A DNA stretch of 64,000 nucleotides from Candidatus Zixiibacteriota bacterium (GTDB lineage Bacteria; Zixibacteria; MSB-5A5; GN15; FEB-12): assembly GCA_040756055.1 (NCBI GenBank), contig JBFLZR010000009.1, positions 4,620 to 68,619 on the forward strand. The letters are read 5' to 3'. How positions within the stretch are numbered: position 1 is the stretch's first letter; every line of letters starts with the position of its first letter. The notes under the pieces were generated by a model that worked only from the letters and a program-made list of their open reading frames with translations, had not been told where the DNA came from and did no database searches. Shown piece after piece: positions 18,305-33,730 of this stretch. Position numbers and translations under genes: made by a program.

Positions 18305-20008
18305 TCAACGACAGACGGTAGCGTTGGGCTCCGCTGTCCGAGCCCCTTTCTGCTGGTTGTAGGTGGTGAACTCCACGACGAAGGAGGTCCCCCGACCCGG
18401 CTGCGAGTTAACATCGATTTTCAGCTTCAGGGCGGCGCAAATCCGATGGACAATCGACAATCCAAGACCTGTCCCCTGCTTCTTGGTCGAGAAAAACGGC
18501 TGGTAAATTTTCTTCATGTGCTCCGGTGAGATTCCGGGACCATTGTCATCGACATGGAGTTCAACTTTGTCACGGGGCCTGTTCACCTGCAGGCGGAATC
18601 TGACGCGTCCGGGTTTTCCCTCGAAGGACTCGAAGGCGTTGGTGGCCAGGTTCAAAAGAAGCTGCTTAATCAGGTCCTCATCGCCCACAACGTAAACGAA
18701 TGGTTCATCCGATTCGAATTCCAACTCAATCCGGTCATTGAGGGACTTGTGATGGTGCAGGATTTCGAGAACATCGTTAACCAGATGGCACAACTCTACT
18801 TTGTTGTAGGATGTGCGATCGATTCTGGCGTACGTAAGAAACTCATTGAGAATCTTTGTCAGACGGTCTGATTCTTTGATTATCAGGGTCATCAGCTTCT
18901 GGTTTTCTCCGTCGAGTTGCAAATCGTTTTTGAGTACCTCAACAGAACCCGATATGGCTGCCAGCGGGTTTCGGATCTCGTGGGCAATAGACGCAGAGAG
19001 TTCACCTACGGCAGCCAATCGATCAGCGATTCTGACCTTGGCCTCAAGTCTCTTGGCTTCAGTCAGGTCAGAAAAGATGGCGATTATTCCTCTCATCCCC
19101 CTGCCCTCTTCCGTGAGGATTGAAGTAGAAAGGCCGAGGGGTACTTTCTGTCCGTTGTTATTGATTATATCAATTTCGACTCTTGGATGTTCCATCCGAT
19201 TTTTGACACCATCGATGAGGAAACCCGCCAGTTGCGGCATTCTTTCGGCAAAGACATCCCCGCAATACATGCCTTTGACATCCTCTTCGCCGTAGCCCAG
19301 AATTCGCTCGGCGGCGCGGTTGAAGTATATGATAAATCCTCTGGAATCGATGGTGAGCAAGCCTGAGTTGAGGTGCTTGAGGATATCATCGGTTTCCAGT
19401 TTGGCTTTTTTAAGGGCCATCGAGGTGTCGGCAAGCTGACGGTCGCGTTGTTTAAGGCGTTCGGCCAGGTATCCTGAGATGAAGGCGACGAGATAGAAAA
19501 TCAGGATGTGTAAGAAGATCGAGTAAAAGGCCGAGTCGTCGGTCAGGAATATAGTTTTTAGGGCGCGCACGGAGAATTCGGGATCTCCGCCGGCGCCGGC
19601 CAAACCGAGCCATATTATAAAGGCGTAGGCGATGGAGACCAGTGAGGCAACGACGAGCGTGCCGAGCAAGCGATAAATCAGAGCCGCGGCTACTATGGTA
19701 AGTATGAACAGCGCCGAGAACGGCGAGTTCACGTTGCCGGTGGAGAAGATGATGCTCGATTCGATGACGATCTCGAATACAAATTGCAGGCTGATAACGA
19801 CGGCAGTAAGGCCCGTGAGGCGGTGTCTCTTGCTGGCCGCCAGCAAAAGGCCGAACAGTAGCGTACAGATGGAGTACAGTACGAACTGGAGTCGCATGAA
19901 CTGGGGATATTTCATCCAGAACACAACGACCGCGAAGAGTACGATGTAGTGCGCGAGCCGGAGAGGCAAAAACCAGCCGGTTTTGTTTGTCGAGTTTTGC
20001 TCTGTCAT
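18305..20008 (-). CDS. pilS: PilS-like membrane PAS sensor histidine kinase
   Basis: N-terminal TM bundle, PAS, H-box IAHEIRNPL, N/G1/F/G2 boxes; follows pilC. Confidence 0.8.
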   Translation of the reverse strand: MTEQNSTNKTGWFLPLRLAHYIVLFAVVVFWMKYPQFMRLQFVLYSICTLLFGLLLAASKRHRLTGLTAVVISLQFVFEIVIESSIIFSTGNVNSPFSALFILTIVAAALIYRLLGTLVVASLVSIAYAFIIWLGLAGAGGDPEFSVRALKTIFLTDDSAFYSIFLHILIFYLVAFISGYLAERLKQRDRQLADTSMALKKAKLETDDILKHLNSGLLTIDSRGFIIYFNRAAERILGYGEEDVKGMYCGDVFAERMPQLAGFLIDGVKNRMEHPRVEIDIINNNGQKVPLGLSTSILTEEGRGMRGIIAIFSDLTEAKRLEAKVRIADRLAAVGELSASIAHEIRNPLAAISGSVEVLKNDLQLDGENQKLMTLIIKESDRLTKILNEFLTYARIDRTSYNKVELCHLVNDVLEILHHHKSLNDRIELEFESDEPFVYVVGDEDLIKQLLLNLATNAFESFEGKPGRVRFRLQVNRPRDKVELHVDDNGPGISPEHMKKIYQPFFSTKKQGTGLGLSIVHRICAALKLKIDVNSQPGRGTSFVVEFTTYNQQKGARTAEPNATVCR

Positions 20009-20071: not shown

Positions 20072-21268
20072 TTAAATCTTGCCAATGATGTCGAACATCG
20101 GCAGGTACATAGCGATCAAGATACCACCGATAACGATACCCATAAAGACGATGATGATCGGCTCGATAACGGAGGTCAAAGCCGATACGGCTTCATCCAC
20201 CTCTTCATCGTAGAAATCGGCAATCTTGTTAAGCATTTCGTCGAGTCCACCGGTTTTTTCACCCACGGAGATCATCTGAGTGACCATCGGTGGAAACACG
20301 CCGGTTTCTTTCAGGGGTCCGGTAATGGTATCACCTTCGGCGATGGACAGCACGGACTTGTTGATGGCGTTGGCCACGACAAGGTTGCCGGCCGCTTTGG
20401 CGGTGATTTCCAGAGCTTCCAAAATCGAGACACCGGAAGCGAGCAGTGTTCCGAGCGTGCGCGTGAATCTGGCGATCGACGATTTCCTGACAAGGTTACC
20501 GAGTACCGGGGACGCCAGCAGGAATTTATCCCAGAGGAGGGCGCCGGCAGGGGTGCGTTTCCACCAGACGAACACTGCAAAGCCGCCTATTGCCCCACCG
20601 ACCAAATAAAGGAAGTTTGCCTTGAGAAAGTTGGAGATCATCAGTACGATCTGGGTCGGCTTGGGCAACTCGGCATTCAGTCCACCGAACATCTTGGCGA
20701 ATACGGGTACGATGAAAGCAAGCATACCGACAGTAACGGCGGCCGCGACCACGACGATCACCGCCGGGTAGACCATAGCGCCTTTTACTTTTCTAATCAA
20801 CTGGTCCGCCTTCTCGCGGTAGACCGCCAGACGGTTGAGAATGGCGTCGAGAGCGCCGCCGACCTCACCGGCTTCGACCATGTTAGAATAAAGGGGGTCG
20901 AAAATCTTCGGATGACGAGCAAGGGCCTCCGAAAGCGTGGAACCGCCCTGTACGGAATCTTTCACCTGGTTTACTATCTTGGCCAGTTCTCTACTTTCCA
21001 TCTGGGAAGCCAGAATGTCAAGACACTGAACCATCGGAAGTCCGGCGCCGATCATGGTGGCAAACTGTCGGGTGAATCGCGAGACGTCGATACGTTTGAT
21101 ACCGCTGCCGAACTTGATCTGTATTTCAGGGGCTCTCTTGGTGATAGACGTTACCATGATCCGGTTCTGCCTGAGCACCCGTTCGAGGTCAGCCCTGGTA
21201 TTGGCTTTGAGTTCGCCTTTGACGGCAGCTCCGGCAAGGGTCTTACCTTTATATTCAAAGACTGGCAC
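20072..21268 (-). CDS. pilC: Type IV pilus inner-membrane platform protein
   Basis: FTRQFATMIGAGLP, AGEVGGALD, FTRTLGTLLASGV and VGEKTGGLDEML. Confidence 0.95.
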   Translation of the reverse strand: MPVFEYKGKTLAGAAVKGELKANTRADLERVLRQNRIMVTSITKRAPEIQIKFGSGIKRIDVSRFTRQFATMIGAGLPMVQCLDILASQMESRELAKIVNQVKDSVQGGSTLSEALARHPKIFDPLYSNMVEAGEVGGALDAILNRLAVYREKADQLIRKVKGAMVYPAVIVVVAAAVTVGMLAFIVPVFAKMFGGLNAELPKPTQIVLMISNFLKANFLYLVGGAIGGFAVFVWWKRTPAGALLWDKFLLASPVLGNLVRKSSIARFTRTLGTLLASGVSILEALEITAKAAGNLVVANAINKSVLSIAEGDTITGPLKETGVFPPMVTQMISVGEKTGGLDEMLNKIADFYDEEVDEAVSALTSVIEPIIIVFMGIVIGGILIAMYLPMFDIIGKI

Positions 21269-21297: not shown

Positions 21298-22371
21298 TCA
21301 AAAAGCCGCGGTTTTCTGTTTTGACAGCGACTCACTCAATTCCTGAGGATTGTGACTGCAATTCATAGCGTCATTTATCGTTATCTTGCCGGTCTGATAC
21401 AGCTCGGCAAGAGACTGATTCATGGTCTTCATTCCAAACTTCTGTCCGGACTGAATCATGGAGTATATCTGGTGCACTTTGTCATCCCTTACGAGCGCCC
21501 TGATAGCCGGCGTTACGACCAGGATTTCCATGGCCATGACGCGTCCGCCGCCGATCTTGGGAATGAGAGTCTGCGATACGATAGCCTGAAGCGTGAAGGA
21601 CAGCGAAATTCGAATCTGTTCCTGCTGGTTGGTCGGGAAAGCGTCAATTATTCGGTTGATAGATTCCGAGGCCGAGTTGGTGTGCAGCGTCGCGAAGGCA
21701 AGATGTCCCGTTTCCGATATCGAGAGCGCCGCTTCGATAGTCTCCAGATCGCGCATCTCGCCGATCAGTACGACATCGGGATCCTCACGCAGAGCGTACT
21801 TCAGGGCGGCAGCGAAGCTCTGGGTGTCGGAGTAGACTTCGCGTTGATTGATCAGCGCTGTTTGATGCCGGTGAAGATACTCGATGGGATCTTCGACGGT
21901 GATAATATGGACCGGGCGTTCCTTGTTAATTTTGTCAATGATCGAAGCCAGCGTTGTGGATTTACCGGAACCGGTAGGCCCGGTAACGAGCACGAGGCCC
22001 CTGGGGAGTCTCGAGAAGTCGCTAATTACTTTGGGAAGTCCGAGTTCGTCGAAGGTCCTGATCTTGTAAGGTATCTGACGTAAGGCGACGGCGACGTTGC
22101 CCCGCTGCATGAACATGTTGCAGCGAAAGCGGCTCATCTGCTCGATACCGAAGGAGAAGTCGAGTTCGGAGTTCTGTTCGAACTTCTGTTTCTGTTTTTC
22201 ATTGAGCATCGAGTATGAGAGCTTCTTGGTTTGTTCGCTGGTGAGGATGTCGTGATTCAGTCTTTGAAGCTTGCCGTCAACTCTCACGACCGGTGGCGAA
22301 CCGACGGTCAGGTGTAAGTCGGAGGCACCCATTTTGACCATCTGCTCAAGTAATTCGCGCAGGGATACCAT
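21298..22371 (-). CDS. pilT: Type IV pilus retraction ATPase
   Basis: ASDLHLTVG, GPTGSGKSTT, ALREDPDVVLIGEMRD, TGHLAFATLHT and AIRALVRDDK. Confidence 0.96.
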   Translation of the reverse strand: MVSLRELLEQMVKMGASDLHLTVGSPPVVRVDGKLQRLNHDILTSEQTKKLSYSMLNEKQKQKFEQNSELDFSFGIEQMSRFRCNMFMQRGNVAVALRQIPYKIRTFDELGLPKVISDFSRLPRGLVLVTGPTGSGKSTTLASIIDKINKERPVHIITVEDPIEYLHRHQTALINQREVYSDTQSFAAALKYALREDPDVVLIGEMRDLETIEAALSISETGHLAFATLHTNSASESINRIIDAFPTNQQEQIRISLSFTLQAIVSQTLIPKIGGGRVMAMEILVVTPAIRALVRDDKVHQIYSMIQSGQKFGMKTMNQSLAELYQTGKITINDAMNCSHNPQELSESLSKQKTAAF

Positions 22372-22518: not shown

Positions 22519-24219
22519 TCAGGCGCCGGCAGAGGTTACCGAGAAGACTTCGTCGATACTGACTACTCCGGCCTTCATTTTATCCACGGCGGCCATACGC
22601 AAGCTGAACATACCCTGTTCCATGGCGGTTTTTCTGATGTCGGAGTCGCTGGCCCGAGCCAGAATAAGCGACTCGATTTCGGCGGTAATCGGCATGACTT
22701 CATAGATGCCGGTTCGCCCGGCCACGCCGGTGTTGTTGCAGTCGTTACAGCCGACACCGCGGAAAGCTCGGATGTTTCTGAGCAGTTCTTTGGGAACTCC
22801 GAAACTCTGGACCTGTTCTTCGGTCAGATTGATCTCTTCCTTACAGCTCTGGCAGATTTTGCGCATCATACGCTGAGCCATAATCATCTTTGTCGCCGAG
22901 GCCACCAGGTAGTAAGGTACGCCCATATCAATTAAGCGGTTAATAGATGACGGGGCGTCGTTGGTGTGAAGGGTCGAGAACACCAAATGACCCGTCAGAG
23001 CGGCGCGGATAGCGATTTCCGCTGTCTCGCTGTCACGAATCTCACCGACCATGATGATATCCGGGTCCTGACGCAAGAAAGAGCGCAGGGCGGCGGCAAA
23101 GGTCATGCCGATATCTGATTTGACGGCTACCTGGTTGATACCATCGAAGTTGAACTCGACCGGGTCCTCAGCCGTCATGATATTCACATCTATGGTGTTG
23201 ATCTGCTTCAGCGCCGAATACAAAGTAGTGGTTTTACCGGATCCGGTAGGACCTGTAACCAGGATGATGCCGTAGGGCAGGTGAATCTTTTCGTTGAATT
23301 TCTTAAGGTCTTCTTCCCTGAAACCGAGTCTGGTCATGTCGACCATGAGGGCCATCGGATCCAGAATACGCATAACGACCTTTTCGCCGAATATCGTGGG
23401 CAGCACCGAAACACGAAGATCGACGGTACGACCGGCGATCTTGATTTTTATGCGGCCGTCTTGTGGGAGGCGGCGCTCGGAGATATCGAGTTCGGCCATG
23501 ATTTTTATGCGCGAGACGATAGCAGCGCGGTACTTGTACGGCAGCGGAGCCATCTCCCGCAAGTCGCCATCGATTCTGTAGCGTACGCGAATTCTTTTCT
23601 CATACATTTCGAAGTGAATATCGGAGGCGCCCATCCTGATCGCATCGGCAATAATCGAGTCGACCAGTTTTACCAGCGGTTTGTCCTGAATCTGTGAGAG
23701 AAGGTCCGATTCGCTGGGGGATTCCTCATCGGAGACTACTTCGAGGTCGGAGTCCTCCTCGAGGCCTTTAACGATAGCCGACAATCCGTCACTGTCCGTA
23801 TAGTAGGCTTCGATCGCTTTTTCGATAGCCTTTTCGGGCGAGATTACCGGCTGCACGGTGCATCCGGTGATAAACTTGATGGCATCGAGGACGTAAATAT
23901 TGTTTGGGTCGCTGATGGCCACCAGAAGGGTCTTGTTCAGTTTCGATACCGCGACAACCTTGAATTTGCGGGCGATATCGAGCGGGATGAGTTTTACTAT
24001 GTCCGGGTTCAGTTCGATATCGGCCAGCCGGAGAGCGCCGATCTTGAGGTGTTTGCCGACGAATTTGGCAATATCGTCCTCAGATTCGACAGCGCCCAAC
24101 CTGACCAGGGCGGCTTCGAACTTTTCCTTTTTGTCTTTAGCTGAGGCGAGCGCCTTCTCGGCTTGTTCCTGCGTAATCTTGCCGGCTTTGACCAGCATGG
24201 CGCTAAGTTCAGTGGACAT
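22519..24219 (-). CDS. pilB: Type IV pilus assembly ATPase
   Basis: ASDIHFE, LDISERRLPQDGR, GPTGSGKTTT, LRQDPDIIMVGEIRD and a CxxC...CxxC zinc site. Confidence 0.96.
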   Translation of the reverse strand: MSTELSAMLVKAGKITQEQAEKALASAKDKKEKFEAALVRLGAVESEDDIAKFVGKHLKIGALRLADIELNPDIVKLIPLDIARKFKVVAVSKLNKTLLVAISDPNNIYVLDAIKFITGCTVQPVISPEKAIEKAIEAYYTDSDGLSAIVKGLEEDSDLEVVSDEESPSESDLLSQIQDKPLVKLVDSIIADAIRMGASDIHFEMYEKRIRVRYRIDGDLREMAPLPYKYRAAIVSRIKIMAELDISERRLPQDGRIKIKIAGRTVDLRVSVLPTIFGEKVVMRILDPMALMVDMTRLGFREEDLKKFNEKIHLPYGIILVTGPTGSGKTTTLYSALKQINTIDVNIMTAEDPVEFNFDGINQVAVKSDIGMTFAAALRSFLRQDPDIIMVGEIRDSETAEIAIRAALTGHLVFSTLHTNDAPSSINRLIDMGVPYYLVASATKMIMAQRMMRKICQSCKEEINLTEEQVQSFGVPKELLRNIRAFRGVGCNDCNNTGVAGRTGIYEVMPITAEIESLILARASDSDIRKTAMEQGMFSLRMAAVDKMKAGVVSIDEVFSVTSAGA

Positions 24220-24281: not shown

Positions 24282-24773
24282 TTAATCCTGAAAGATGTCG
24301 TCGAGCTTATCCTCGGCTTGGCTGGCGAAATCGCTTGAAATCCCGGCCTTGGCGCCATCGGCCGCCTGCTCTTTAATTTTCTCGAAAATTTTGCCCAGTT
24401 CGATAGATGTTTCCTTTGCGTACAGACGTACCATACCAATAGTGGTCCGGTCATCGAAGATCACCACCAGAATCGAGCGGTCTCCAACCAGGGACATGTG
24501 AATGTTGTCCTTCTTTCCCTGATGAAAGAGCACTGAGAATTCCGGTTCACCGACGAGACGGGCGATTTCTTTCGTGGAAGCGAATGACCCGGCTAACAAA
24601 GCGGCAAGAGCGGTCGTGTCGAGAGAGTGAGTAAACCCCTGCCTCGTGATAAGGTGGCCGTCCTTGTCAACCAAGAGAGCGCATTTCGCCTCGGCTCCTT
24701 TGAGCATTTTTGAAATCAACGCATCAATCTGGTTAATTTCTTCTTCGTAAAATATCAGACTATCATCAGCCAT
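24282..24773 (-). CDS. mglB: MglB roadblock/LC7 GTPase-activating protein
   Basis: LIFYEEEI...ALLVDKDGHLI...DTTALAALLAG...ILVVIFDDRTTIGMVRL and an acidic C-terminal helix (DDIFQD) closely follow Myxococcus MglB. Confidence 0.9.
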   Translation of the reverse strand: MADDSLIFYEEEINQIDALISKMLKGAEAKCALLVDKDGHLITRQGFTHSLDTTALAALLAGSFASTKEIARLVGEPEFSVLFHQGKKDNIHMSLVGDRSILVVIFDDRTTIGMVRLYAKETSIELGKIFEKIKEQAADGAKAGISSDFASQAEDKLDDIFQD

Positions 24774-24790: not shown

Positions 24791-25879
24791 CTATTTTATT
24801 CCAAATAAGCGTTTAAAGAACCCGCGCTTTTTAATATCGCCGCGGCGTTTCAATGACGGTGCCATAGCGGGCGAAGCCAACGATGCGCCGCTGTCAGGCG
24901 AGTCGGCTATACCCTTTTTGACACTACTGGCTCTATTTCCGTAATCGTCAACCTCAGGTGAAGCGGAGGGGGTGAACTTGGCCGCAGATATCTTTCTGGC
25001 GTTTTCCGCCGCTTTGTCACTCCCCGGATAAGGACGATATTGTGATTTCGATTCAGCCGCAGGCGGAGGTTCTTCCTCGGTTGCGGTGGAAGTCGCGCCG
25101 GTCTGAATTGGCTGTGTTGATCTTCCGCCGCTCGCGGCGGACCGACCGTCAGCCGATATCTGAGTACCTATGGTAGCCGCTGCCGGCGGCATTGATACGG
25201 GTGCGGAGACCGCGACGGATTGCGCCGACGCTGAGACGGGAGCCTGAGCAACCGGTGGCTCGTGGTAACTCACGCCCGGTTTGGGTCTATTGGAAGCGCT
25301 GCCCTTGGCCTTCTCCAGCACCAGCTTGATGATCAACTTGAGAGTATCAAAGACTCCGTTGCCAACGGTGGCGGAAGCTTCGAAATGCGGCCGGCCGCGG
25401 GTGTTCAGCCGGGCATTGAGCGCCTCAACCGGGAGCACACCCGGCAAGTCTCGCTTGTTGTACTGAATGACCATAGGCATATCGTTGATATCGTAGCCGT
25501 ATTCCCTGAGGTTTTCCTCGAGGTTGATCAGCGACTCGATATTCTCGTCCATTTTATCCGGCTGACTGTCAGCCACGAACACTACTCCATCGACACCTCG
25601 AAGTACCAACTTCCTTGTAGCGTTGTAGTATACCTGGCCGGGGACGGTATACAATTGGAACTTAGCCGCAAAACCGTTGATGGTACCGATATTGATGGGC
25701 AGAAAATCAAAATACAGTGTTCGGTCCGCCTCGGTGGCCAGTGATATCATTTTGCCGCGCGTATCCGACGGGACCTTGGCATGGACGTACAGCAAATTGG
25801 TGGTTTTGCCGGACAGGCCTGGCCCGTAGTATACAATTTTGCAACAGACTTCACGCGACGAGTAGTTTATGGATACCAT
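24791..25879 (-). CDS. mglA: MglA-family small GTPase with a long C-terminal extension
   Basis: KIVYYGPGLSGKTTNL, DRTLYFDF, TVPGQ and QYNKRD in the first ~195 aa; then a Pro/Ala/Ser-rich linker and terminal KKRGFFKRLFGIK. Confidence 0.92.
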   Translation of the reverse strand: MVSINYSSREVCCKIVYYGPGLSGKTTNLLYVHAKVPSDTRGKMISLATEADRTLYFDFLPINIGTINGFAAKFQLYTVPGQVYYNATRKLVLRGVDGVVFVADSQPDKMDENIESLINLEENLREYGYDINDMPMVIQYNKRDLPGVLPVEALNARLNTRGRPHFEASATVGNGVFDTLKLIIKLVLEKAKGSASNRPKPGVSYHEPPVAQAPVSASAQSVAVSAPVSMPPAAATIGTQISADGRSAASGGRSTQPIQTGATSTATEEEPPPAAESKSQYRPYPGSDKAAENARKISAAKFTPSASPEVDDYGNRASSVKKGIADSPDSGASLASPAMAPSLKRRGDIKKRGFFKRLFGIK

Positions 25880-25908: not shown

Positions 25909-26250
25909 TTACCCTGCCAGTTTGAGCTTGCTTATCGCGTTTTTAATTTCCAGGCGGATTAGTCCGATATTGACCTGTTTTTCAGTGGTAACGACCAGTA
26001 TCCCCAGACCGGCATCCGAGAAAAACAATTTGCCCTGTTCAGCTTCAATGGTCACCTGTTTGAGCGGAGTCGTATTTAACCGGTCGAGCGATTTTCTGAT
26101 GTTAGTCGTTATTGACGCCGCCAGGGCTCCAATGGCTTCGCTCTCAAACGATTCGTCCAGATTCGCGGCTATGACGATGCCATCGTTGCCGACGAGCATC
26201 GAACCGGTGACTCCGGTCGTCTTATTCAAATCGTCCAGTACGTCATACAT
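25909..26250 (-). CDS. Stand-alone roadblock/LC7 protein (MglC-like)
   Basis: GVTGSMLVGNDGIVIAA...ALAASI...VTIEAEQGKLFF...LIRLEI roadblock pattern; 113 aa. Confidence 0.88.
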   Translation of the reverse strand: MYDVLDDLNKTTGVTGSMLVGNDGIVIAANLDESFESEAIGALAASITTNIRKSLDRLNTTPLKQVTIEAEQGKLFFSDAGLGILVVTTEKQVNIGLIRLEIKNAISKLKLAG

Positions 26251-27217
26251 AGCTTCTCTCCACGTTCTCGATAAGCTTTTCGCTGTATCGTTCAGTCACA
26301 TATTTTCTTATCATTTCCAGCCCCTGATTTATACGAATGTTTAGAACATCGTCCATAGCCCGCTCCGCCACTACCATCAGGCAGTAGGCTTTTTCGCGAG
26401 CCACTACAATTTTCTTGTCTTCAAAGAGCATATCGACCTTTTCGGGCGGCTCACATTGCAGTCTTGATACAACCTGACGGTTGGCTTCAATGAGAGACAG
26501 GGCAAACGGAGCCCAGTCTTCAGATTCAACACCGCGGCGACTGAAATTGCCCAAGAGCAATCCCTCATGATCAACCACCGCCGCCATCAGCACCGAACCA
26601 TCCTCGCCTATATATCGCGTAGCGCGATCGAACGCGTTGCCTTCGCCGAATCCGGTGCTGCCGGTTGAAGAGCCGGAGCTCCTGGTCGTGAACTCCTCTT
26701 CCTTCGGCATGGATATAGTGGATTGGCTGAAGCCTTTCTCTCGTGAAACCGCCACCGACGTTGATCCGAAACCTTGCGGCTGGGCCGCGGGCTTGGAGGC
26801 GGACGGGGTTTTGGCGCGCGCCCGCGGTGAATGGAGCCCCTGTACCACCGGCAGGAGAATAAACGGCGTAGCCACTATGTGTAAAAGCATCGCCGGGAGA
26901 TAACTCCCCATCCCTGCCAACACGGCCATTTTCACCTGCCATTGATACATAATGGCGATTAACAGTCCGGTCAGCGCTCCCAGAGCAAACCGGTAAACCA
27001 TGCACAATCCTGCTGACGAGATCAACTGAAGCGGCGAAAGCCGGCGGTTAAGCAAATGGACCACGAGTCCATAGAACGCCAGCTCATAGACTATATTGAT
27101 GAGTGGCGCTTCGGATAGATCCGTTCCGTATCTCTTGGGGAAGATCAGCATTGACACGACCAAAACCAACAGAGACAGAAGCAGTATTTGTCTTGCTATG
27201 CGTCCGCTTATTTCCAT
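26243..27217 (-). CDS. Membrane protein with C-terminal roadblock/LC7 domain
   Basis: Four to five hydrophobic segments in the first 130 aa, a Ser/Thr/Gly linker, then SVLMAAVVDHEGLLL...CLMVVAE. Confidence 0.75.
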   Translation of the reverse strand: MEISGRIARQILLLSLLVLVVSMLIFPKRYGTDLSEAPLINIVYELAFYGLVVHLLNRRLSPLQLISSAGLCMVYRFALGALTGLLIAIMYQWQVKMAVLAGMGSYLPAMLLHIVATPFILLPVVQGLHSPRARAKTPSASKPAAQPQGFGSTSVAVSREKGFSQSTISMPKEEEFTTRSSGSSTGSTGFGEGNAFDRATRYIGEDGSVLMAAVVDHEGLLLGNFSRRGVESEDWAPFALSLIEANRQVVSRLQCEPPEKVDMLFEDKKIVVAREKAYCLMVVAERAMDDVLNIRINQGLEMIRKYVTERYSEKLIENVERSYV

Positions 27218-27234: not shown

Positions 27235-28095
27235 TCACCGGTACGACACCAGCAAGTTTTCGACCTTCATTCTCAGTGTTCCCAGATTGGCCGATTCGTT
27301 GGCCACAAACAGGAACAAACCATCATGAACACGGACCAGATAGAAGGTCATGTTCATTGTTTCTATCAATACGCTATAGAAATTACCGAATGAGCTTTTC
27401 ACCAGGTCCTGACTGAGCAGGTGCCCTACATCGCTCAGGGTAGCACTGCACAGAGATGAATCCATGGTCAGGTTCCATTCGGAGTCTATGACCAGCCCTT
27501 CAAAATTGACAAGCAGGGTACCATCGATACCGGGAATGGTCATCGCCATTTCAATCACCTGCCGCGCGGTCAGTTTTTCAGATTCCGATGATTCTTTTGC
27601 GACAGGGACCTCATCGGTCTGACTGGCCTTTTCGTCGGTTTGAACGGTCGCTGATTCAACCGCTTTTTCGCGCTCCTGAGGGATTTTGAGGGCTATTTCC
27701 AGCAACCTTTTGATCTGGTCGTTCTGGGGATCGGCCTCGGTGAGTTTACGAAGCAGTTTAACCGCCTGCTGAAACTCTCCCTTATAGATGTATATTTCAG
27801 CGAGAAGTAATTCAATAGTGCGCGTCACTCCGTCAATCTCGGCTGCCTTGTTGGCCTCGATTTCGGCCCAGTCATACAGGCCGCGATCGAGATTGATTTT
27901 TGCCATAACGACGTGGGCTGAGCCATAAGACGGATGGATCTTAAGTCCGTTCTGGCAGATGCGAAATGCTTTTTCCAATTCGCCTTTCTTTCGATAAGCC
28001 TCGGCCAGCGCGGCAAAGATCTGTGAATTAGGATCAACGTCGAGAATCTTCTGACATTTATTGATCCGATCGTCTATTTCAACAGCACTAATCAT
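27235..28095 (-). CDS. TPR protein with C-terminal roadblock/LC7 domain
   Basis: DPNSQIFAALAEAYRKKGELEKA TPR pattern; C-terminal GIDGTLLVNFEGLVI...LFLFVANESANLGTLRMKV. Confidence 0.8.
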   Translation of the reverse strand: MISAVEIDDRINKCQKILDVDPNSQIFAALAEAYRKKGELEKAFRICQNGLKIHPSYGSAHVVMAKINLDRGLYDWAEIEANKAAEIDGVTRTIELLLAEIYIYKGEFQQAVKLLRKLTEADPQNDQIKRLLEIALKIPQEREKAVESATVQTDEKASQTDEVPVAKESSESEKLTARQVIEMAMTIPGIDGTLLVNFEGLVIDSEWNLTMDSSLCSATLSDVGHLLSQDLVKSSFGNFYSVLIETMNMTFYLVRVHDGLFLFVANESANLGTLRMKVENLLVSYR

Positions 28096-28202: not shown

Positions 28203-28565
28203 TCAGTCCAGTATCTTTTTCGCTTCAAATATCCCGAACAGGAACAACCCTGCCATCGCGACCCATAACACAGGGACTACGAAGCTCGGGATGGCTATGA
28301 TTTCGGTGTCCTGAAGCAATCCGGTCAGCTGGGAAACCGCAAGGACCGCGAAAGCGAGCATAAGGATCTGCCAACTCCTGGAGAGCAGTCCTCCTTTGAG
28401 TACGTTGACCACTTTAAGCGAGACAACCACACAACCCACAGCGATCCCGAGAATCACAATCTTCAAGGCGGTCGGCGGGGATACAATCACCGCCAGATTA
28501 GCTGCCATTGCCTGACTGTATGAGACCAGGACGCTTACTGCGCTAAAACAGAAAATCCTTTTCAT
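28203..28565 (-). CDS. Small membrane protein of unknown function
   Basis: 120 aa with a signal-like N-terminus and three more hydrophobic helices; starts 2 nt after the DUF4388 stop. Confidence 0.75.
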   Translation of the reverse strand: MKRIFCFSAVSVLVSYSQAMAANLAVIVSPPTALKIVILGIAVGCVVVSLKVVNVLKGGLLSRSWQILMLAFAVLAVSQLTGLLQDTEIIAIPSFVVPVLWVAMAGLFLFGIFEAKKILD

Positions 28566-28567
28566 TA

Positions 28568-29770
28568 TTACCCTCTTACCATCTTGACGACTTTATCTGC
28601 TCTTTTCATTGTTTTATAAAAACCGTCGTCGATTCCAAATCTTTTTACGAGTTCGCGTCGCACGGCCAGCGGTTCGGCGATTTCCTTTTTTACCTGAACA
28701 GCGGCTTCGCGATAAAGGCTCACGCCGAGCAGTTGAAAGACATATTCCAACTGTTCGGACAGCATGCTCTCCAACCCTGACATCAGCTTGTGCAGCCTGA
28801 CCTCGGAGGGAAAAGTGCGTGCCGTAGAGACGAACTTTTCGAATGACGGAGACAGGTCGGAAGCCGGGTCAACACCCGGAAAGTAAGTGAAGACGCCGCT
28901 GCGATATTGTGAGGCGAAATCCGCGAAGAGACCGTTGTTTTCTCCGAGGACGTCATCGACCAGACTGCGAATCTTGAAGAAACAATTGTTGTACAGGTGA
29001 AAAAGCACCCCGAGTATTATTTCCTCTTCATCTTCTTTCTCTTCGGGACTGTCCTCGCGCCGACCGACGACTTCAATGAGGTTCCCGACAATAAGACGGT
29101 AGACTGACCGGCAGGTCACGAATTCGCCCATTGGAGAAATATTAATAAGGTCAGGCAGGGTCCGCTCGCCGTTTATCAGAGCCATGACCCGGTATTCTTC
29201 AAGGGAAACGGTTATATCTTCCTTGGTGACCCTGGGAGATTTGGCAAGCGCCAGGAGTACATCATCCGGCGGAAGAACCTTTTGAATCTCCATCCATTCG
29301 TCGATACGACGGGTACCTTCCATGATAACGTTCATGGTGTTCAATTCGATCAGGAAGGGCGCGCTGGAAGGTGCGGCTCCTTCGTGAAAAACGAAGTCGC
29401 CATCCTGCCACGAGAAGAGATTATAAACGATCTCTTCGATCTGCAAGCGGAGGCACTCGGCGATATCGTCTTTGTGGAAAAGATTCATGTCTATCAGCGT
29501 GGTGCCGAGTTGTCTTCCGGTTTGTTTGTGCAGGGCGATGGCCCTGTCCAGATCAGACTTGGTGATTTTACCCCTGCGAAGCAGCATATTGCCGAGCAGA
29601 TCCTCCGACGAGTTCACGGAGGAGGCATAGATTATGTTGCCCCCCTTGAAGGCTACTTCTTTTTGTCGGGTGGCTGTTTTAACTTCGAATATGCCTGTCT
29701 TTTTTCCGGTAGCCAAAAGCTGCAGGATATCCGGAAACGAGACGGTTTTTAAGTTGCCGGCTAAGCTCAT
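28568..29770 (-). CDS. DUF4388 (PatA-N/PATAN-like) domain protein
   Basis: MSLAGNLKTVSFPDILQLLATGKKTG start, LGxxLLxxGxIT-type repeats, FSWQDGDFVF and EGTRRIDEW. Confidence 0.85.
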   Translation of the reverse strand: MSLAGNLKTVSFPDILQLLATGKKTGIFEVKTATRQKEVAFKGGNIIYASSVNSSEDLLGNMLLRRGKITKSDLDRAIALHKQTGRQLGTTLIDMNLFHKDDIAECLRLQIEEIVYNLFSWQDGDFVFHEGAAPSSAPFLIELNTMNVIMEGTRRIDEWMEIQKVLPPDDVLLALAKSPRVTKEDITVSLEEYRVMALINGERTLPDLINISPMGEFVTCRSVYRLIVGNLIEVVGRREDSPEEKEDEEEIILGVLFHLYNNCFFKIRSLVDDVLGENNGLFADFASQYRSGVFTYFPGVDPASDLSPSFEKFVSTARTFPSEVRLHKLMSGLESMLSEQLEYVFQLLGVSLYREAAVQVKKEIAEPLAVRRELVKRFGIDDGFYKTMKRADKVVKMVRG

Positions 29771-29892: not shown

Positions 29893-32151
29893 CTATTTCA
29901 GGTCGAGGCTTAATGTTCCGGCAGCATTCAGGTCCTGGACCTCTACGAGGGGATTATCGGCCGCTGGCCAGGCAATTCGCTGTTCTAATTTTGAACAGAA
30001 TAAGCTTTGGAAGCCCGCTGACTCGAGTTCCAACAATACGTCTTCCGTGACATTCCAGGGTTGGCCAATCACCAGCATTCTTCTGGACCCGCATTTCTGC
30101 GGCAGGCGATTATTCGGCAACAGCTTATGACATATCAGCACTTCCATATTATCGACTTCGACCCAGACACCCGCTTCACCGGGGCGATAGCAGCGCCGAC
30201 CATGACCAGCCGGGGGATACTGATTGGCAAAGACGGTTATTTCGGCGGTCAGGTTGAGGGAATCCATTCGATCGCAGACTTCACGCAGCGCGGCGGAACA
30301 CTGCTTCGGTACGATTATCTGGCGTGAGCGATAGCGGCTGGAGAGCCGTAAAAGATCGTCGATCCCATCGTAGTCTGCGGTCAGGGCAATGATTTTGCCG
30401 ATCGTTTCGATTTCAAGTTCGTCAAGCAGAGGCTGAATTATCCTGGAATCGATCGGATAGTTGCGCCCCTGTATGCCCGTGAAAATCAGGTCAGCCTGGT
30501 TTTGGCCGGTGGGATGAACCGCGGCGCAGACGCCACCGGGAATGTTGAGTAGAGTCAATCTTTGCCCCGCTGTCCAATTGAACGAAGCGAAAAAGGCGGC
30601 AGCAAGCAGGATGTTAGCACCAGTCAAGGCGGAAAATACGAGCACGCGTCTGACAGGTTTCTTGCCGATCGACCACATCGAAAGGGTAAAAAATCCATAG
30701 AAACACACTACGGCCCAAAGTGGAGCATCCGGCACGATTGCGGCGGGCATGTTCTCGCTCCCCAGAAATTGAACCAGGTGTGAGATGACCGCCAGTAACA
30801 GGTTGAGAAGCGAGCCAAACAATGCTCCCAACATCGGCAGTATGAGATGAGATACCAGAACCGTCAGAATACCCGCGACCGCCAGCGAGACCAGAGGTAC
30901 AATCACAAGATTGGCCAGAGGCGAAATCAGCGGCACACGGCCGAAGTAGTAAGCAATCACACCGAGAGAGCACAATTGGGCCACCACCGATACCATTAGA
31001 GGGAAAATCAGCCACCGGTACCACCACTTATTTTGTACGGACCTGAAGAATTCGGCCGCTATCGGAAGAATGACAATCAGTCCCCAGGCTGTAATGAACG
31101 AAAGTTGAAAGCCAACATCGAAAAGTTGCGCCGGGTCATACAGCAGGATTATCATCGCGGTCGCGGCAATGATGTTGTTGAGGTTGTAGCGTCTTTGAAG
31201 CAGCCCGGCCGTTATGACAAGTGTCGCCATCAGAGAGGCCCTGACAACCGACGGTTCTTCATACGACAACAGCGTGAACACGACAATTACAGTGATCAGG
31301 ACAGCCGCCCGTCGCTTCGGCCTGAGCGATAACGGCCTCAACAGCATAATAAAAAACAACAGGACTATGGCGACGTTTGAGCCGGACACCGCCAGCAGAT
31401 GAAGAGTGCCGGAATCCCGAAAACGCTGATAGACTTCGACCGGGATATCTCTGGTTTCACCGATTAGAAATCCTGCAGCCATGGCCGCGCTTTGTGGCGA
31501 CAGATTCGCGTAGAGGGATTCTCTTATGAGATCACGCAATTCATCGATAATGGGAAAGATTGAGTAGCGGTTGCCCTTGTCGACTCTTACGTCAAGCAGG
31601 GTCGGCAAGTAGACTATTCCGAACACCCCTTTCATGTTCAGGTAGCGGCGGTAATCAAAGGCGGCCGAAAAACCGGATGCTCGAAGCGGGTAGATTTTCG
31701 CTTCAAATTCCAGCCGGTCTCCCCTCTGTATGGCCGTGGTAGTATCAGTGACACGCAGAAGAATCGCACCGTCGGGATAAAAGGTTCTGTTCGAGACAAG
31801 AGAATCGATGGACATCTTCAACTCGGTCCGGTCACTTTTCAGGTCGGGCCAGTCGGTCACCTTGCCGAAGATGTGGTATCGCTCAGCGTTTTCGACGAAG
31901 TTTATCACATTTAAGGGCCCGGGATCTACATATCTGATGGAGAATCCGAACGCGGACAGAAACAGCAGCGATAAGCCAAATAACAGCGCCGCCCTTCCCG
32001 AATCAGGGCCGCTGAGATACAACAAGCCACCGGTAGCGGCAATCATGCCGGATGTCAACCAGAGCCATGAGGGTATGTGGAGCTGGTCGGCGAGGACAAT
32101 TCCGCAAACGATGCAAAATAGAATGCCGATAGATGGAAACTTACGCACCAT
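29893..32151 (-). CDS. comEC: ComEC/Rec2 competence protein
   Basis: GFLIGET, FRDSGTLHLLAVSGSNV, SVVRASLM, DVGFQLSF and ANLVIVP; degenerate MBL-like C-terminus. Confidence 0.9.
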   Translation of the reverse strand: MVRKFPSIGILFCIVCGIVLADQLHIPSWLWLTSGMIAATGGLLYLSGPDSGRAALLFGLSLLFLSAFGFSIRYVDPGPLNVINFVENAERYHIFGKVTDWPDLKSDRTELKMSIDSLVSNRTFYPDGAILLRVTDTTTAIQRGDRLEFEAKIYPLRASGFSAAFDYRRYLNMKGVFGIVYLPTLLDVRVDKGNRYSIFPIIDELRDLIRESLYANLSPQSAAMAAGFLIGETRDIPVEVYQRFRDSGTLHLLAVSGSNVAIVLLFFIMLLRPLSLRPKRRAAVLITVIVVFTLLSYEEPSVVRASLMATLVITAGLLQRRYNLNNIIAATAMIILLYDPAQLFDVGFQLSFITAWGLIVILPIAAEFFRSVQNKWWYRWLIFPLMVSVVAQLCSLGVIAYYFGRVPLISPLANLVIVPLVSLAVAGILTVLVSHLILPMLGALFGSLLNLLLAVISHLVQFLGSENMPAAIVPDAPLWAVVCFYGFFTLSMWSIGKKPVRRVLVFSALTGANILLAAAFFASFNWTAGQRLTLLNIPGGVCAAVHPTGQNQADLIFTGIQGRNYPIDSRIIQPLLDELEIETIGKIIALTADYDGIDDLLRLSSRYRSRQIIVPKQCSAALREVCDRMDSLNLTAEITVFANQYPPAGHGRRCYRPGEAGVWVEVDNMEVLICHKLLPNNRLPQKCGSRRMLVIGQPWNVTEDVLLELESAGFQSLFCSKLEQRIAWPAADNPLVEVQDLNAAGTLSLDLK

Positions 32152-32170
32152 CGCTTCGCAAAAGGCTGAG

Positions 32171-33730
32171 TTAGAAAATCCTTTTAATTATATCTTTCAA
32201 TTCTCTGACGCCCATGAGCCAGCAGAAGAGAGCATAAAGCAGCATGCCGGCGATCATCGGCAAAACCAACTGCTCCAGGCGTACTATTATTCTGGCGTTG
32301 CCGCTGTAAAAACTCAATGGCACCAGTTTGGCGATATAAAAGGCCAGAAGTGAAGCCGCGCTGACTCTCAATAGGTTCAGTCCCAGGCGTGGCAGAGAAA
32401 ATTCGACTCCCCGAGACGGAAGGAAGTACAGCAATATGGCAAAATTCAACAGGCCTGAGAGCGATGTGGCCGCCGCCAGGCCCGCGAAATTCAACATCTT
32501 GACCAACGGATAGTAGAGTACGATGTTCAGAGCAACTGATATCACAGAGGCCTTCATCGGAAGTTTGGAATCGTTATTGGCGTAGTAAAAAGGCACGGTA
32601 ACCCTCACTGCCGCAAACCCTACCAGACCGTATGAGTAATGCAGAAGGGCCAGACTGGTGTTCGCTGAGTCCTGTGCCGAAAAGGCGCCCCAGGTGTAGA
32701 TCAGGGTTACGATTTCTTTTCCCATGAGGGCAAGGAACACCGCCGATGGAATGACCACGAACATATTGAGGCCGATGGTCTGGTCAAAAGCCCTTTTGAG
32801 GCCTTCCGAGTCTTTTTTTGCCACAAGTTCAGAGACAGCCGGCAGAGCTACCGTGCCAAGAGCCACGGCAAAGACGCCGAGAGGAAAGTGCATCAGGCGA
32901 TAGGCGTACGACAAAAAGGATATAGAACCTTCCATAAGAAATGATGCCAGAAGAGTGCTCACCAGAATGTTGATACGTCCGGCCGACAGGCCGACTATCA
33001 TGGGGGTCAGCATGTTGACCACTCTCTTGAAGGTTTCATCGAGAAATCCGAACATGGGTCTGAAGCGGTAGCCAACTTTGTACAGAGCCGGCAGTTGTAT
33101 CGCCAACTGGCCCGCCCCTCCCAGAAGTACCCCTATGGCCAGGGTGTAGGCAGGCTGGGAGAAGAACTTGTAGAAAGCCACGACGAAGACAATGATGCCA
33201 AGATTAAACAGAGCGGGCGATATAGCCGGGATTCCGAATCTGCCGAAGGAGTTCAGCATGCCCATCACCAGGGCAGACAACGACACGAGCAGCAAATAAA
33301 CCATCATTACCCTGGTCAGGTTGACAGTGAGTGAGAATTTTTCGGCGATCTCGGTAAACCCGTTGGCCGATATATAGACGATGGCCGGCGAGGCTATAAT
33401 GCCCAGCAGGACTATCAAACCGACTACGAGCAAGATGGCGGTGATGACTATATCGGCAAGGCGAAAGGCTTCTTTCTCGGAGGACGTAACCAGTTTTTCC
33501 TTGAAAATGGGGATAAAAGCGGCCGAGAGCGCGCCTTCAGCGAACAGGTCTCTGAGCAGATTGGGGATTCTGAAGGCAGTCAGAAACGCGTCGGTGGCCA
33601 TGCCGGCGCCAAAGTAATAGGCCATAACCTGTTCTCGGACAAGGCCGAGTATTCTTGAGAAGGCGGTCGCCCCTGAGACCACTCCGGCGGAACCCAGCAG
33701 GCTGTTTTTGTGTATGTTACTTATTGACAA
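32171..33730 (-). CDS. murJ: Lipid II flippase MurJ
   Basis: SRILGLVRE, AFRIPNLLRDLFAEGALSAAF and YAYRLMHFPLGVF. Confidence 0.95.
   Translation of the reverse strand: MSISNIHKNSLLGSAGVVSGATAFSRILGLVREQVMAYYFGAGMATDAFLTAFRIPNLLRDLFAEGALSAAFIPIFKEKLVTSSEKEAFRLADIVITAILLVVGLIVLLGIIASPAIVYISANGFTEIAEKFSLTVNLTRVMMVYLLLVSLSALVMGMLNSFGRFGIPAISPALFNLGIIVFVVAFYKFFSQPAYTLAIGVLLGGAGQLAIQLPALYKVGYRFRPMFGFLDETFKRVVNMLTPMIVGLSAGRINILVSTLLASFLMEGSISFLSYAYRLMHFPLGVFAVALGTVALPAVSELVAKKDSEGLKRAFDQTIGLNMFVVIPSAVFLALMGKEIVTLIYTWGAFSAQDSANTSLALLHYSYGLVGFAAVRVTVPFYYANNDSKLPMKASVISVALNIVLYYPLVKMLNFAGLAAATSLSGLLNFAILLYFLPSRGVEFSLPRLGLNLLRVSAASLLAFYIAKLVPLSFYSGNARIIVRLEQLVLPMIAGMLLYALFCWLMGVRELKDIIKRIF

Follow-up and report, generated by a model that had tools for sequence, protein, structure and literature searches.

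We analysed a stretch of 64,000 nucleotides from the genome of a Candidatus Zixiibacteriota bacterium (contig JBFLZR010000009.1), hereafter the window, and in it a gene for the small GTPase MglA that carries an unusual C-terminal tail. The gene lies on the reverse strand (24791..25879, stop codon at 24791-24793) and appears in the list of open reading frames as a protein of 362 amino acids. Its first 195 residues (25295..25879, reverse strand) form the G domain. Residues 3-196 align to the M. xanthus MglA structures 5ymx, 6h17 and 6hjh (E 8e-78 to 3e-77, approximately 70% identity) and to Thermus thermophilus MglA 3t12 (E 4e-73). The proteins in these structures have 195-203 amino acids and no tail, which bears out the statement of a first-pass annotation of this DNA that Myxococcus and Thermus MglA are tail-less proteins of about 195 residues. 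The P-loop GPGLSGKT (residues 19-26, pattern GxxxxGK[ST]), the intrinsic arginine finger D52-R53-T54 and T78-V-P-G-Q82, with the catalytic Q82 in the Thr-type G3 motif TVPGQ that replaces DxxG, are invariant in 88 relatives, and the last two align to M. xanthus MglA. The guanine-specificity motif NKxD reads N141-K-R-D144 and is invariant or nearly so in the same relatives. The intact MglA core of approximately 195 residues described in that annotation is thus confirmed, both by the structure alignments and by the P-loop, R53, Q82 and NKRD. Pfam gave only weak Arf and Ras matches, as is usual for MglA. By sequence, the G domain is a member of group 1 MglA in the Ras superfamily and the architecture is a variant of it: the single-domain organisation of about 195 residues is replaced by 362 residues in the window protein and by 313-517 residues in the frames of the phylum. 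The tailed gene is the sole MglA homologue of the window's 3.3-Mb genome, which is 97.7% complete.

The segment highlighted in the first-pass annotation (24791-25294) corresponds exactly to the tail, that is, residues 196-362 plus the stop codon. All the tail elements are encoded on the reverse strand. The tail starts with a variable low-complexity linker (residues 196-336; 24872..25294) with a net charge of 0 and, as annotated, a composition rich in Ala, Ser and Pro (26, 24 and 17 of the 141 residues, respectively). Within the linker, approximately 80 residues from the C-terminus, lies the motif Y-R-P-Y-P-G (residues 281-286; 25022..25039), in which R282, P283, P285 and G286 are invariant in an alignment of 88 sequences. 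YRPYPG is carried by 22 of 40 tailed MglA loci, is missing in the other 18 and was not found in 30 sequences from distant families of the phylum; it is a candidate partner-binding motif. The polybasic region starts with P-x-M-A-P-S-L-[KR]-R-R (residues 337-346; 24842..24871). Column statistics gave conservation values of 0.99 for P337, 0.97 for M339, 0.92 for A340, 0.98 for P341 and 0.93 for R346, and several distant families keep the motif in the form M-[AQ]-x-S-x-[KR]-x-[KR]. Both motifs had been missed by the annotation, and they suggest a role of the tail beyond anchoring.

The protein closes with KKRGFFKRLFGIK (residues 350-362; 24794..24832), classed as a MinD-type amphipathic peptide on its conservation, its identity to MinD ends and the AlphaFold2 (AF2) model. 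The C-terminus reads ...SLKRRGDIKKRGFFKRLFGIK before the stop codon, and the translation agrees with the sequence quoted in the annotation. R352, G353, L358 and G360 are invariant in the homologues, and F354, F355, K356, R357 and F359 are at least 96% conserved. As expected of a membrane-targeting sequence (MTS), the motif occupies the extreme C-terminus, ending 2 residues before the stop codon. No second copy of it was found anywhere in the window's genome. The last 160 residues contain no Cys, and the CAAX box or Cys lipidation site of the eukaryotic Ras/Rho hypervariable region is therefore absent.

A search of approximately 5.8 billion proteins retrieved at least 120 clusters of 320-384 amino acids with full (100%) query coverage. 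Their named sources were Zixibacteria, Zixiibacteriota or the FCB group, and their C-termini were almost identical. Column entropy, computed over 120 homologue clusters, was 0-1.4 bits in the G domain (1-195), 2.8-3.5 bits with gaps in the linker (196-336), mostly 0-1.1 bits in PxMAPSLRRR (337-346; the x position, 338, is free at 3.1 bits) and mostly 0-0.6 bits in the terminal peptide (350-362; 1.3 bits at I361 and 0.6 at K362). The core and the last 26 residues are under selective conservation, while the linker is free to vary. The invariant residues are encoded by every synonymous codon, including all six Arg and all six Leu codons; as the codon set was chosen by peptide pattern, this counts as supporting evidence only. 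The annotation had named read-through or misassembly as possible origins of the tail. However, the tail is part of a single uninterrupted frame, recurs in orthologues as long open frames throughout the phylum and is kept in hundreds of separately assembled genomes, closed, complete chromosomes (loci L096 and L103) among them; the gene order around it is likewise shared between independent assemblies. Together with the use of all the synonymous codons at invariant residues, this leaves practically no room for an annotation or assembly artefact or a non-functional read-through, in favour of which nothing was found.

MglA was detected in 269 of the 285 genomes of the phylum (E <= 1e-30) and in 194 of the 198 high-quality ones. 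The open frames listed ranged from 313 to 448 amino acids, except for two of 183 and 203, the former starting at base 2 of its contig. The 30 frames from distant families reached 517 amino acids, and tail length across the phylum ranged from 104 to 316. Exact RGFFKRLFG was present in 97 of the 285 genomes, all of them in the window's order (families f1, f2 and f4), where it is nearly invariant. We also read the protein ends in thirty genomes from the other sixteen families. Their sequences differ (e.g. KKKKGFFLFRLFGKK, KRKGFFSRLFGFLKK, RSLFDRLFGWLFGR, KFSLFGWLKRLGRK and KGFFLWRFFSKLSKR), and the character is kept: the last 16 residues of these 30 proteins have a mean net charge of +4.8 and a mean of 3.7 aromatics, the corresponding values in their linkers being -1.1 and 0.34. 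The basic-plus-aromatic end is universal, while YRPYPG is not. The GFFxxLFG end, for which the annotation had suggested a survey of long homologues, holds within the window's order, but in the distant families only its basic and aromatic character remains. Charge and aromaticity kept without sequence are what lipid binding would predict, unlike a specific protein-protein interface.

The tailed gene was also present in contigs of metagenome-assembled genomes (MAGs) labelled at NCBI as Ignavibacteriales, Ignavibacteriaceae, Candidatus Acidoferrum, Candidatus Deferrimicrobium and GN15 (L001, L007, L017, L044, L056, L059 and L094). These loci were placed by matching their coordinates to genomes (G166, G163, G115, G071, G059, G063 and G135), and all of them belong to the window's Zixibacteria order, disagreeing with the NCBI labels. 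Consequently, among the loci listed in the peptide scan described below, the exact motif on MglA is confined to this lineage. Outside the phylum, the MglA frames of named genomes (Acidobacteriota, Bdellovibrionota, 'delta proteobacteria' and Verrucomicrobiota) had 194-251 amino acids, with one of 322.

The MTS of E. coli MinD, KGFLKRLFGG, has been used as a transplantable membrane tether (PMC5471200), and in a 2026 preprint it belongs to an amphipathic helix for which strong membrane binding is predicted. The window peptide is identical to it at 7 of 9 aligned positions. A scan with a DNA pattern for sequences encoding RGFFKRLFG covered 185,579 species, each represented by one genome, and at least 120 loci matched. 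Among the matches listed, the peptide was in frame in 85, approximately 50 of which were tailed MglA genes; in many of the other in-frame loci it sits 0-8 residues from the C-terminus of an unrelated protein. In the same matches RGFFKRLFG ends three bona fide MinD proteins, which score 344 (Ottowia, L075), 348 (Caldimonas, L100) and 302 bits (a Campylobacterales MAG, L081) on TIGR01968 (cut-off 212.9), as well as one FtsY and one FtsK-like protein. Other carriers belong to the PBP1A family (560 and 530 bits on TIGR02074 in two of them, several more recognised by eye). The likeness to the E. coli MinD end pointed out in the annotation is therefore closer than was known at the time, as the exact peptide ends authentic MinDs. 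On unrelated cytoplasmic NTPases RGFFKRLFG seems to recur as a portable membrane tag, and the lipid of the membrane is the sole partner that MinD, PBP1A, FtsY, FtsK-like proteins and MglA could plausibly share across phyla.

The FtsY comes from a Ruminococcus MAG (L071) and has a long acidic spacer before the peptide; the FtsK-like ATPase comes from a Bacteroidaceae MAG (L112). The PBP1A carriers (L013, L020, L023, L039, L067, L069 and L083) belong to Bacteroidota, Acidobacteriota, Elusimicrobia and one alphaproteobacterium, and their ends read KKRGFFKRLFG, in many cases with a few Lys, Asp or Glu residues after it. As a PBP1A should have its C-terminus in the periplasm, the peptide would there serve as an amphipathic tail on the inner membrane's outer leaflet or on the outer membrane.

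No MinD above the TIGR01968 cut-off was found in the window's genome (best ParA-like match, 63.9 bits). Consequently, the peptide was not borrowed from a resident minD, an origin also ruled out by the lack of another copy of the motif in the genome. Division-site placement in this bacterium is presumably carried out by another system. The tailed MglA shares with the MinD MTS the C-terminal position, the basic flanks and the phi-phi-x-x-phi-phi core. The carrier differs, being a TRAFAC Ras-like GTPase here and a SIMIBI ParA/MinD ATPase in the case of MinD. The MTS directly follows the fold in MinD, whereas a leash of approximately 140 residues intervenes in the tailed MglA, which has an extra upstream polybasic cluster as well. 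Dimerisation on ATP increases the avidity of MinD, a mechanism that is not known for MglA.

The terminal peptide has the pattern of an MTS, a G-FF-KR-LF-G-I core flanked by K350, K351, R352 and K362, and the last 16 residues of the protein have a net charge of +6. The hydrophobic moment of the 11-mer was 0.49, compared to 0.41 for the E. coli MTS, and only 0.9% of the linker windows reached it. AF2 was run with the 88-sequence alignment. The linker was modelled with a predicted local distance difference test score (pLDDT) below 50 and without secondary structure, slightly higher values being obtained at residues 271-290 (53-61), and the sole helix predicted in the tail was at residues 354-359. 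No tail segment was docked with confidence in the model.

The gene is part of a conserved neighbourhood, entirely on the reverse strand in the window. The order DUF4388, small membrane protein, TPR-Roadblock, transmembrane (TM)-Roadblock, Roadblock, MglA, MglB, PilB, PilT and PilC recurs in 39 related loci. Upstream of mglA lie a free Roadblock gene (25909-26250), a gene for a membrane-spanning Roadblock protein of 324 amino acids with hydrophobic segments (26243-27217) and a TPR-Roadblock gene (27235-28095), all three recognised by Pfam and synteny. They are followed by the syntenic genes of a small protein of 120 amino acids with four TM segments (28203-28565) and of a DUF4388/PatA_N protein with an MshEN-like cyclic di-GMP motif (28568-29770). 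On the other side, 18 nt downstream of mglA, is mglB (24282..24773), encoding a Roadblock/LC7 GTPase-activating protein of 163 amino acids (Pfam Robl_LC7, 1.8e-13; NCBIfam MglB NF052242, 1.2e-26, below its cut-off). The adjacent mglB is syntenic in 37 of the 39 loci, those 37 being the ones that extend past mglA. Immediately downstream of mglB are pilB (22519-24219) and pilT (21298-22371), both identified by Pfam T2SSE and conserved order, and pilC (20072-21268), identified by NCBIfam PilC and conserved order. The upstream flank (29893-33730) encodes ComEC (Competence and DUF4131) and MurJ and is kept in several related loci, and the downstream flank (18305-20008) encodes a PilS-like 6TM-PAS histidine kinase.

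The C-terminus of MglB is an acidic tail, ...SSDFASQAEDKLDDIFQD, that might make electrostatic contact with the polybasic end of MglA. In Myxococcus, MglA-GTP reportedly activates type IV pili via the TPR protein SgmX (PMC7668184). The Zixibacteria operon groups the switch with the pilus motor and with several Roadblock regulators, one of which is embedded in the membrane, and a membrane-tethered MglA fits this arrangement.

The G domain alone was searched against 1.84 billion representatives clustered at 50% identity, and 2,407 proteins were retrieved at E <= 1e-30. Among the best 150 of these 2,407, 147 were longer than 260 amino acids, a count that is inflated by the 50% clustering in favour of variable-tailed forms and is not a frequency. 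The tail ends of the same best 150 were classified by simple rules: 43 ended in an MTS-like peptide (e.g. KKKGFFDGLFKRDK, KKKGFFGGLFNKDK and KKRGFFSRLFGG), with KKKGFFGRLFGRG (P0162) as a near-miss just outside the rules; 17 ended in a TM-like hydrophobic helix; and a further group ended in an apparent small beta-rich domain. Two long-MglA examples were checked, and both adjoin Roadblock and PatA_N/DUF4388 genes. To our mind, the independent lineages with an amphipathic peptide or a TM helix are the strongest comparative argument for membrane attachment as the purpose of the tail.

The homologues with TM-like ends (P0150, P0153, P0156, P0159, P0160, P0171, P0190, P0191, P0204, P0207, P0210, P0214, P0217, P0238, P0239, P0260 and P0266) are candidate tail-anchored bacterial Ras-like GTPases. 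The gene of a similar homologue, P0172 (locus L171), sits between two Roadblock genes, near PatA_N/TPR proteins. A second long-MglA clade (P0145-P0206 and others; loci L169 and L170) comprises proteins of 440-717 amino acids, often with poly-Gln linkers, whose own conserved tail motif reads [MF][YF]FTSV(N/D)TD...KKPVNPK and then GF(F/L)xx(L/F)F; the genes on either side encode a PatA_N/DUF4388 protein and a Roadblock protein of 276 amino acids. Bacteroidota were considered as the source of this 'FFTSV...GFFxxLF' clade and discarded, given ten Bacteroidota genomes without any MglA.

The anatomy of the tail, its selective conservation, its identity to MinD ends, the conservation of its physicochemical character and the synteny of the locus were all observed directly. 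We consider it probable that the tail is a reversible, electrostatically assisted amphipathic lipid-binding tether on a flexible leash. The single MglA of the genome consists of an intact G domain, a disordered leash of approximately 140 residues, a polybasic stretch and the short MinD-type amphipathic helix of KKRGFFKRLFGIK. The helix would lie flat in the cytoplasmic leaflet with F354, F355, L358, F359 and I361 inserted, and the 6-9 Lys/Arg among the last 26 residues would bind anionic lipids; these contacts would hold MglA reversibly at the inner membrane. The leash would let the G domain reach the membrane-spanning Roadblock, the other Roadblock and TPR proteins, MglB and the PilB/PilT/PilC motor. 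A single helix of the MinD type anchors weakly. Binding would therefore probably be dynamic, and clustering or partners may reinforce it. Lipid binding itself, its strength, any coupling to the nucleotide state and a link to pilus control are inferences from computation.

Several points weigh against a lipid tether. Of the helical-wheel analysis proposed with the annotation, only the comparison with the linker favours the peptide: its moment of 0.49 is not significantly above that of shuffles of the same residues, 23% of which reach it. However, the E. coli MinD MTS fails too (32%). The shuffle test has little power for such short peptides, and as it also fails an authentic MTS it does not discriminate for an 11-13-mer. 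The AF2 confidence was low overall (pLDDT 58.7), even in the switch regions. A single MTS of the E. coli MinD type is a weak anchor, and tandem copies of it were employed in experiments (PMC5471200). Within the order RGFFKRLFG is kept more strictly than lipid binding by itself would require, and there could be an additional protein partner; together with YRPYPG and PxMAPSLRRR, this near-invariance leaves room for such a partner or for an intramolecular role. Finally, the PBP1A carriers presumably expose the motif in the periplasm, so that it is not specific to the cytoplasmic leaflet.

The C-terminal peptide might be a protein docking motif rather than a lipid binder, with PilB, the DUF4388/MshEN protein, the membrane-spanning Roadblock or MglB as possible partners, an architecture that would resemble the conserved C-terminal peptide at the end of the FtsZ linker. 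RGFFKRLFG varies less within the order than amphipathic lipid binders usually do, YRPYPG and PxMAPSLRRR look like partner-binding sites, and the genes of the candidate partners are strictly syntenic. Nevertheless, RGFFKRLFG ends MinD, PBP1A, FtsY and FtsK-like proteins in phyla without this operon, the distant Zixibacteria families keep charge and aromaticity but not sequence, and in other MglA lineages the peptide is replaced by a TM helix. Docking in place of lipid binding is, on balance, improbable.

Somewhat less probable still is that the tail works mainly as an intramolecular regulator whose motifs contact the protein's own G domain in one of the nucleotide states, with an auto-inhibitory effect or an effect like that of a guanine nucleotide dissociation inhibitor (GDI) or exchange factor (GEF), membrane binding being secondary. 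There is a precedent for such contacts in M. xanthus, where the C-terminal helix of MglB reportedly binds an allosteric pocket of MglA (PMC6785124); in addition, the conserved motifs lie well upstream of the tail end, and the pLDDT was slightly raised around residues 271-290. But AF2 docked no tail segment with confidence, and YRPYPG is absent from 18 of 40 close loci and from all 30 distant families, whereas the basic-aromatic end is present throughout. If the polybasic end bound nucleoid DNA, RNA or polyphosphate, all of them polyanions, in place of the membrane, this would account for the charge of the last 16 residues, but not for the 3-4 aromatic or large hydrophobic residues conserved in a phi-phi-x-x-phi-phi pattern, which is typical of membrane insertion and not of nucleic-acid binding, nor for the identity of the peptide to a MinD MTS; we regard it as very improbable.

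Returning to the tailed MglA as a probable lipid-tethered switch, its closest known relatives are the MglA proteins of M. xanthus and T. thermophilus, which share the approximately 70% identical G domain, R53, Q82, TVPGQ, NKRD, the adjacent mglB and the linkage to type IV pilus genes. They are tail-less (195-203 amino acids), whereas the Zixibacteria protein has 167 extra residues ending in what appears to be a lipid-binding-type peptide, and its operon brings together four Roadblock proteins, unlike theirs. In Myxococcus the polar targeting of MglA takes place via partner proteins. SofG, an MglA paralogue of M. xanthus with sequence extensions, positions PilB/PilT (PMC4316618); it exists alongside MglA, while the tailed protein is the only MglA of the window's genome. 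FtsZ/FtsA share the design of a folded NTPase with a disordered linker of variable length and a short conserved membrane-linking end, but the fold and the cellular process differ, and the analogy is one of design only.

The eukaryotic small GTPases offer another comparison. Their hypervariable regions and membrane elements (the polybasic tail of K-Ras4B, the amphipathic helices of Arf/Sar1) likewise combine a variable spacer and a membrane element with a Ras-like G domain, and anchoring to the membrane is a core part of how such switches operate (PMC4917890). By contrast, the tailed MglA has no CAAX box or lipidation site, its spacer is approximately ten times longer than that of Ras, and its helix is C-terminal, whereas it is N-terminal in Arf and Sar1. 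The analogy drawn in the first-pass annotation thus stands as a functional resemblance and nothing closer, and the likeness is almost certainly convergent.

MglA and the MinD-type MTS are each well known, but no prior description of their combination was found. Full-text searches turned up no paper in which MglA occurs together with Zixibacteria or with a membrane-targeting sequence, and a 2014 survey of prokaryotic Ras-like GTPases treats them as consisting of a single domain, with no mention of a tail of this kind.

The small GTPases of prokaryotes are usually regarded as soluble switches that rely on partner proteins for their positioning. Arguments on the origin of eukaryotic membrane-bound GTPase networks have drawn on this absence of intrinsic membrane anchors (PMC4917890). 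A phylum-wide MglA with a MinD-type tether, if our reading of these sequences is right, would mean that bacteria can solve membrane anchoring without lipidation, and TM-anchored MglA lineages would lead to the same conclusion. The peptide enlarges the catalogue of natural, portable membrane-targeting tags and, with only 13 residues, would be a simple model for how membrane confinement alters a polarity oscillator and type IV pilus control. Tentatively, and with the balance still somewhat against it, self-anchoring may even be a common, unrecognised trait of the MglA family in uncultured bacteria, a leash with a MinD-type peptide or a TM helix having been added independently. If so, many bacterial Ras-like polarity switches would be membrane-bound two-dimensional switches, like eukaryotic Ras, Rho and Arf, and their membrane cycling would possibly be coupled to the GTPase cycle at the pilus base.

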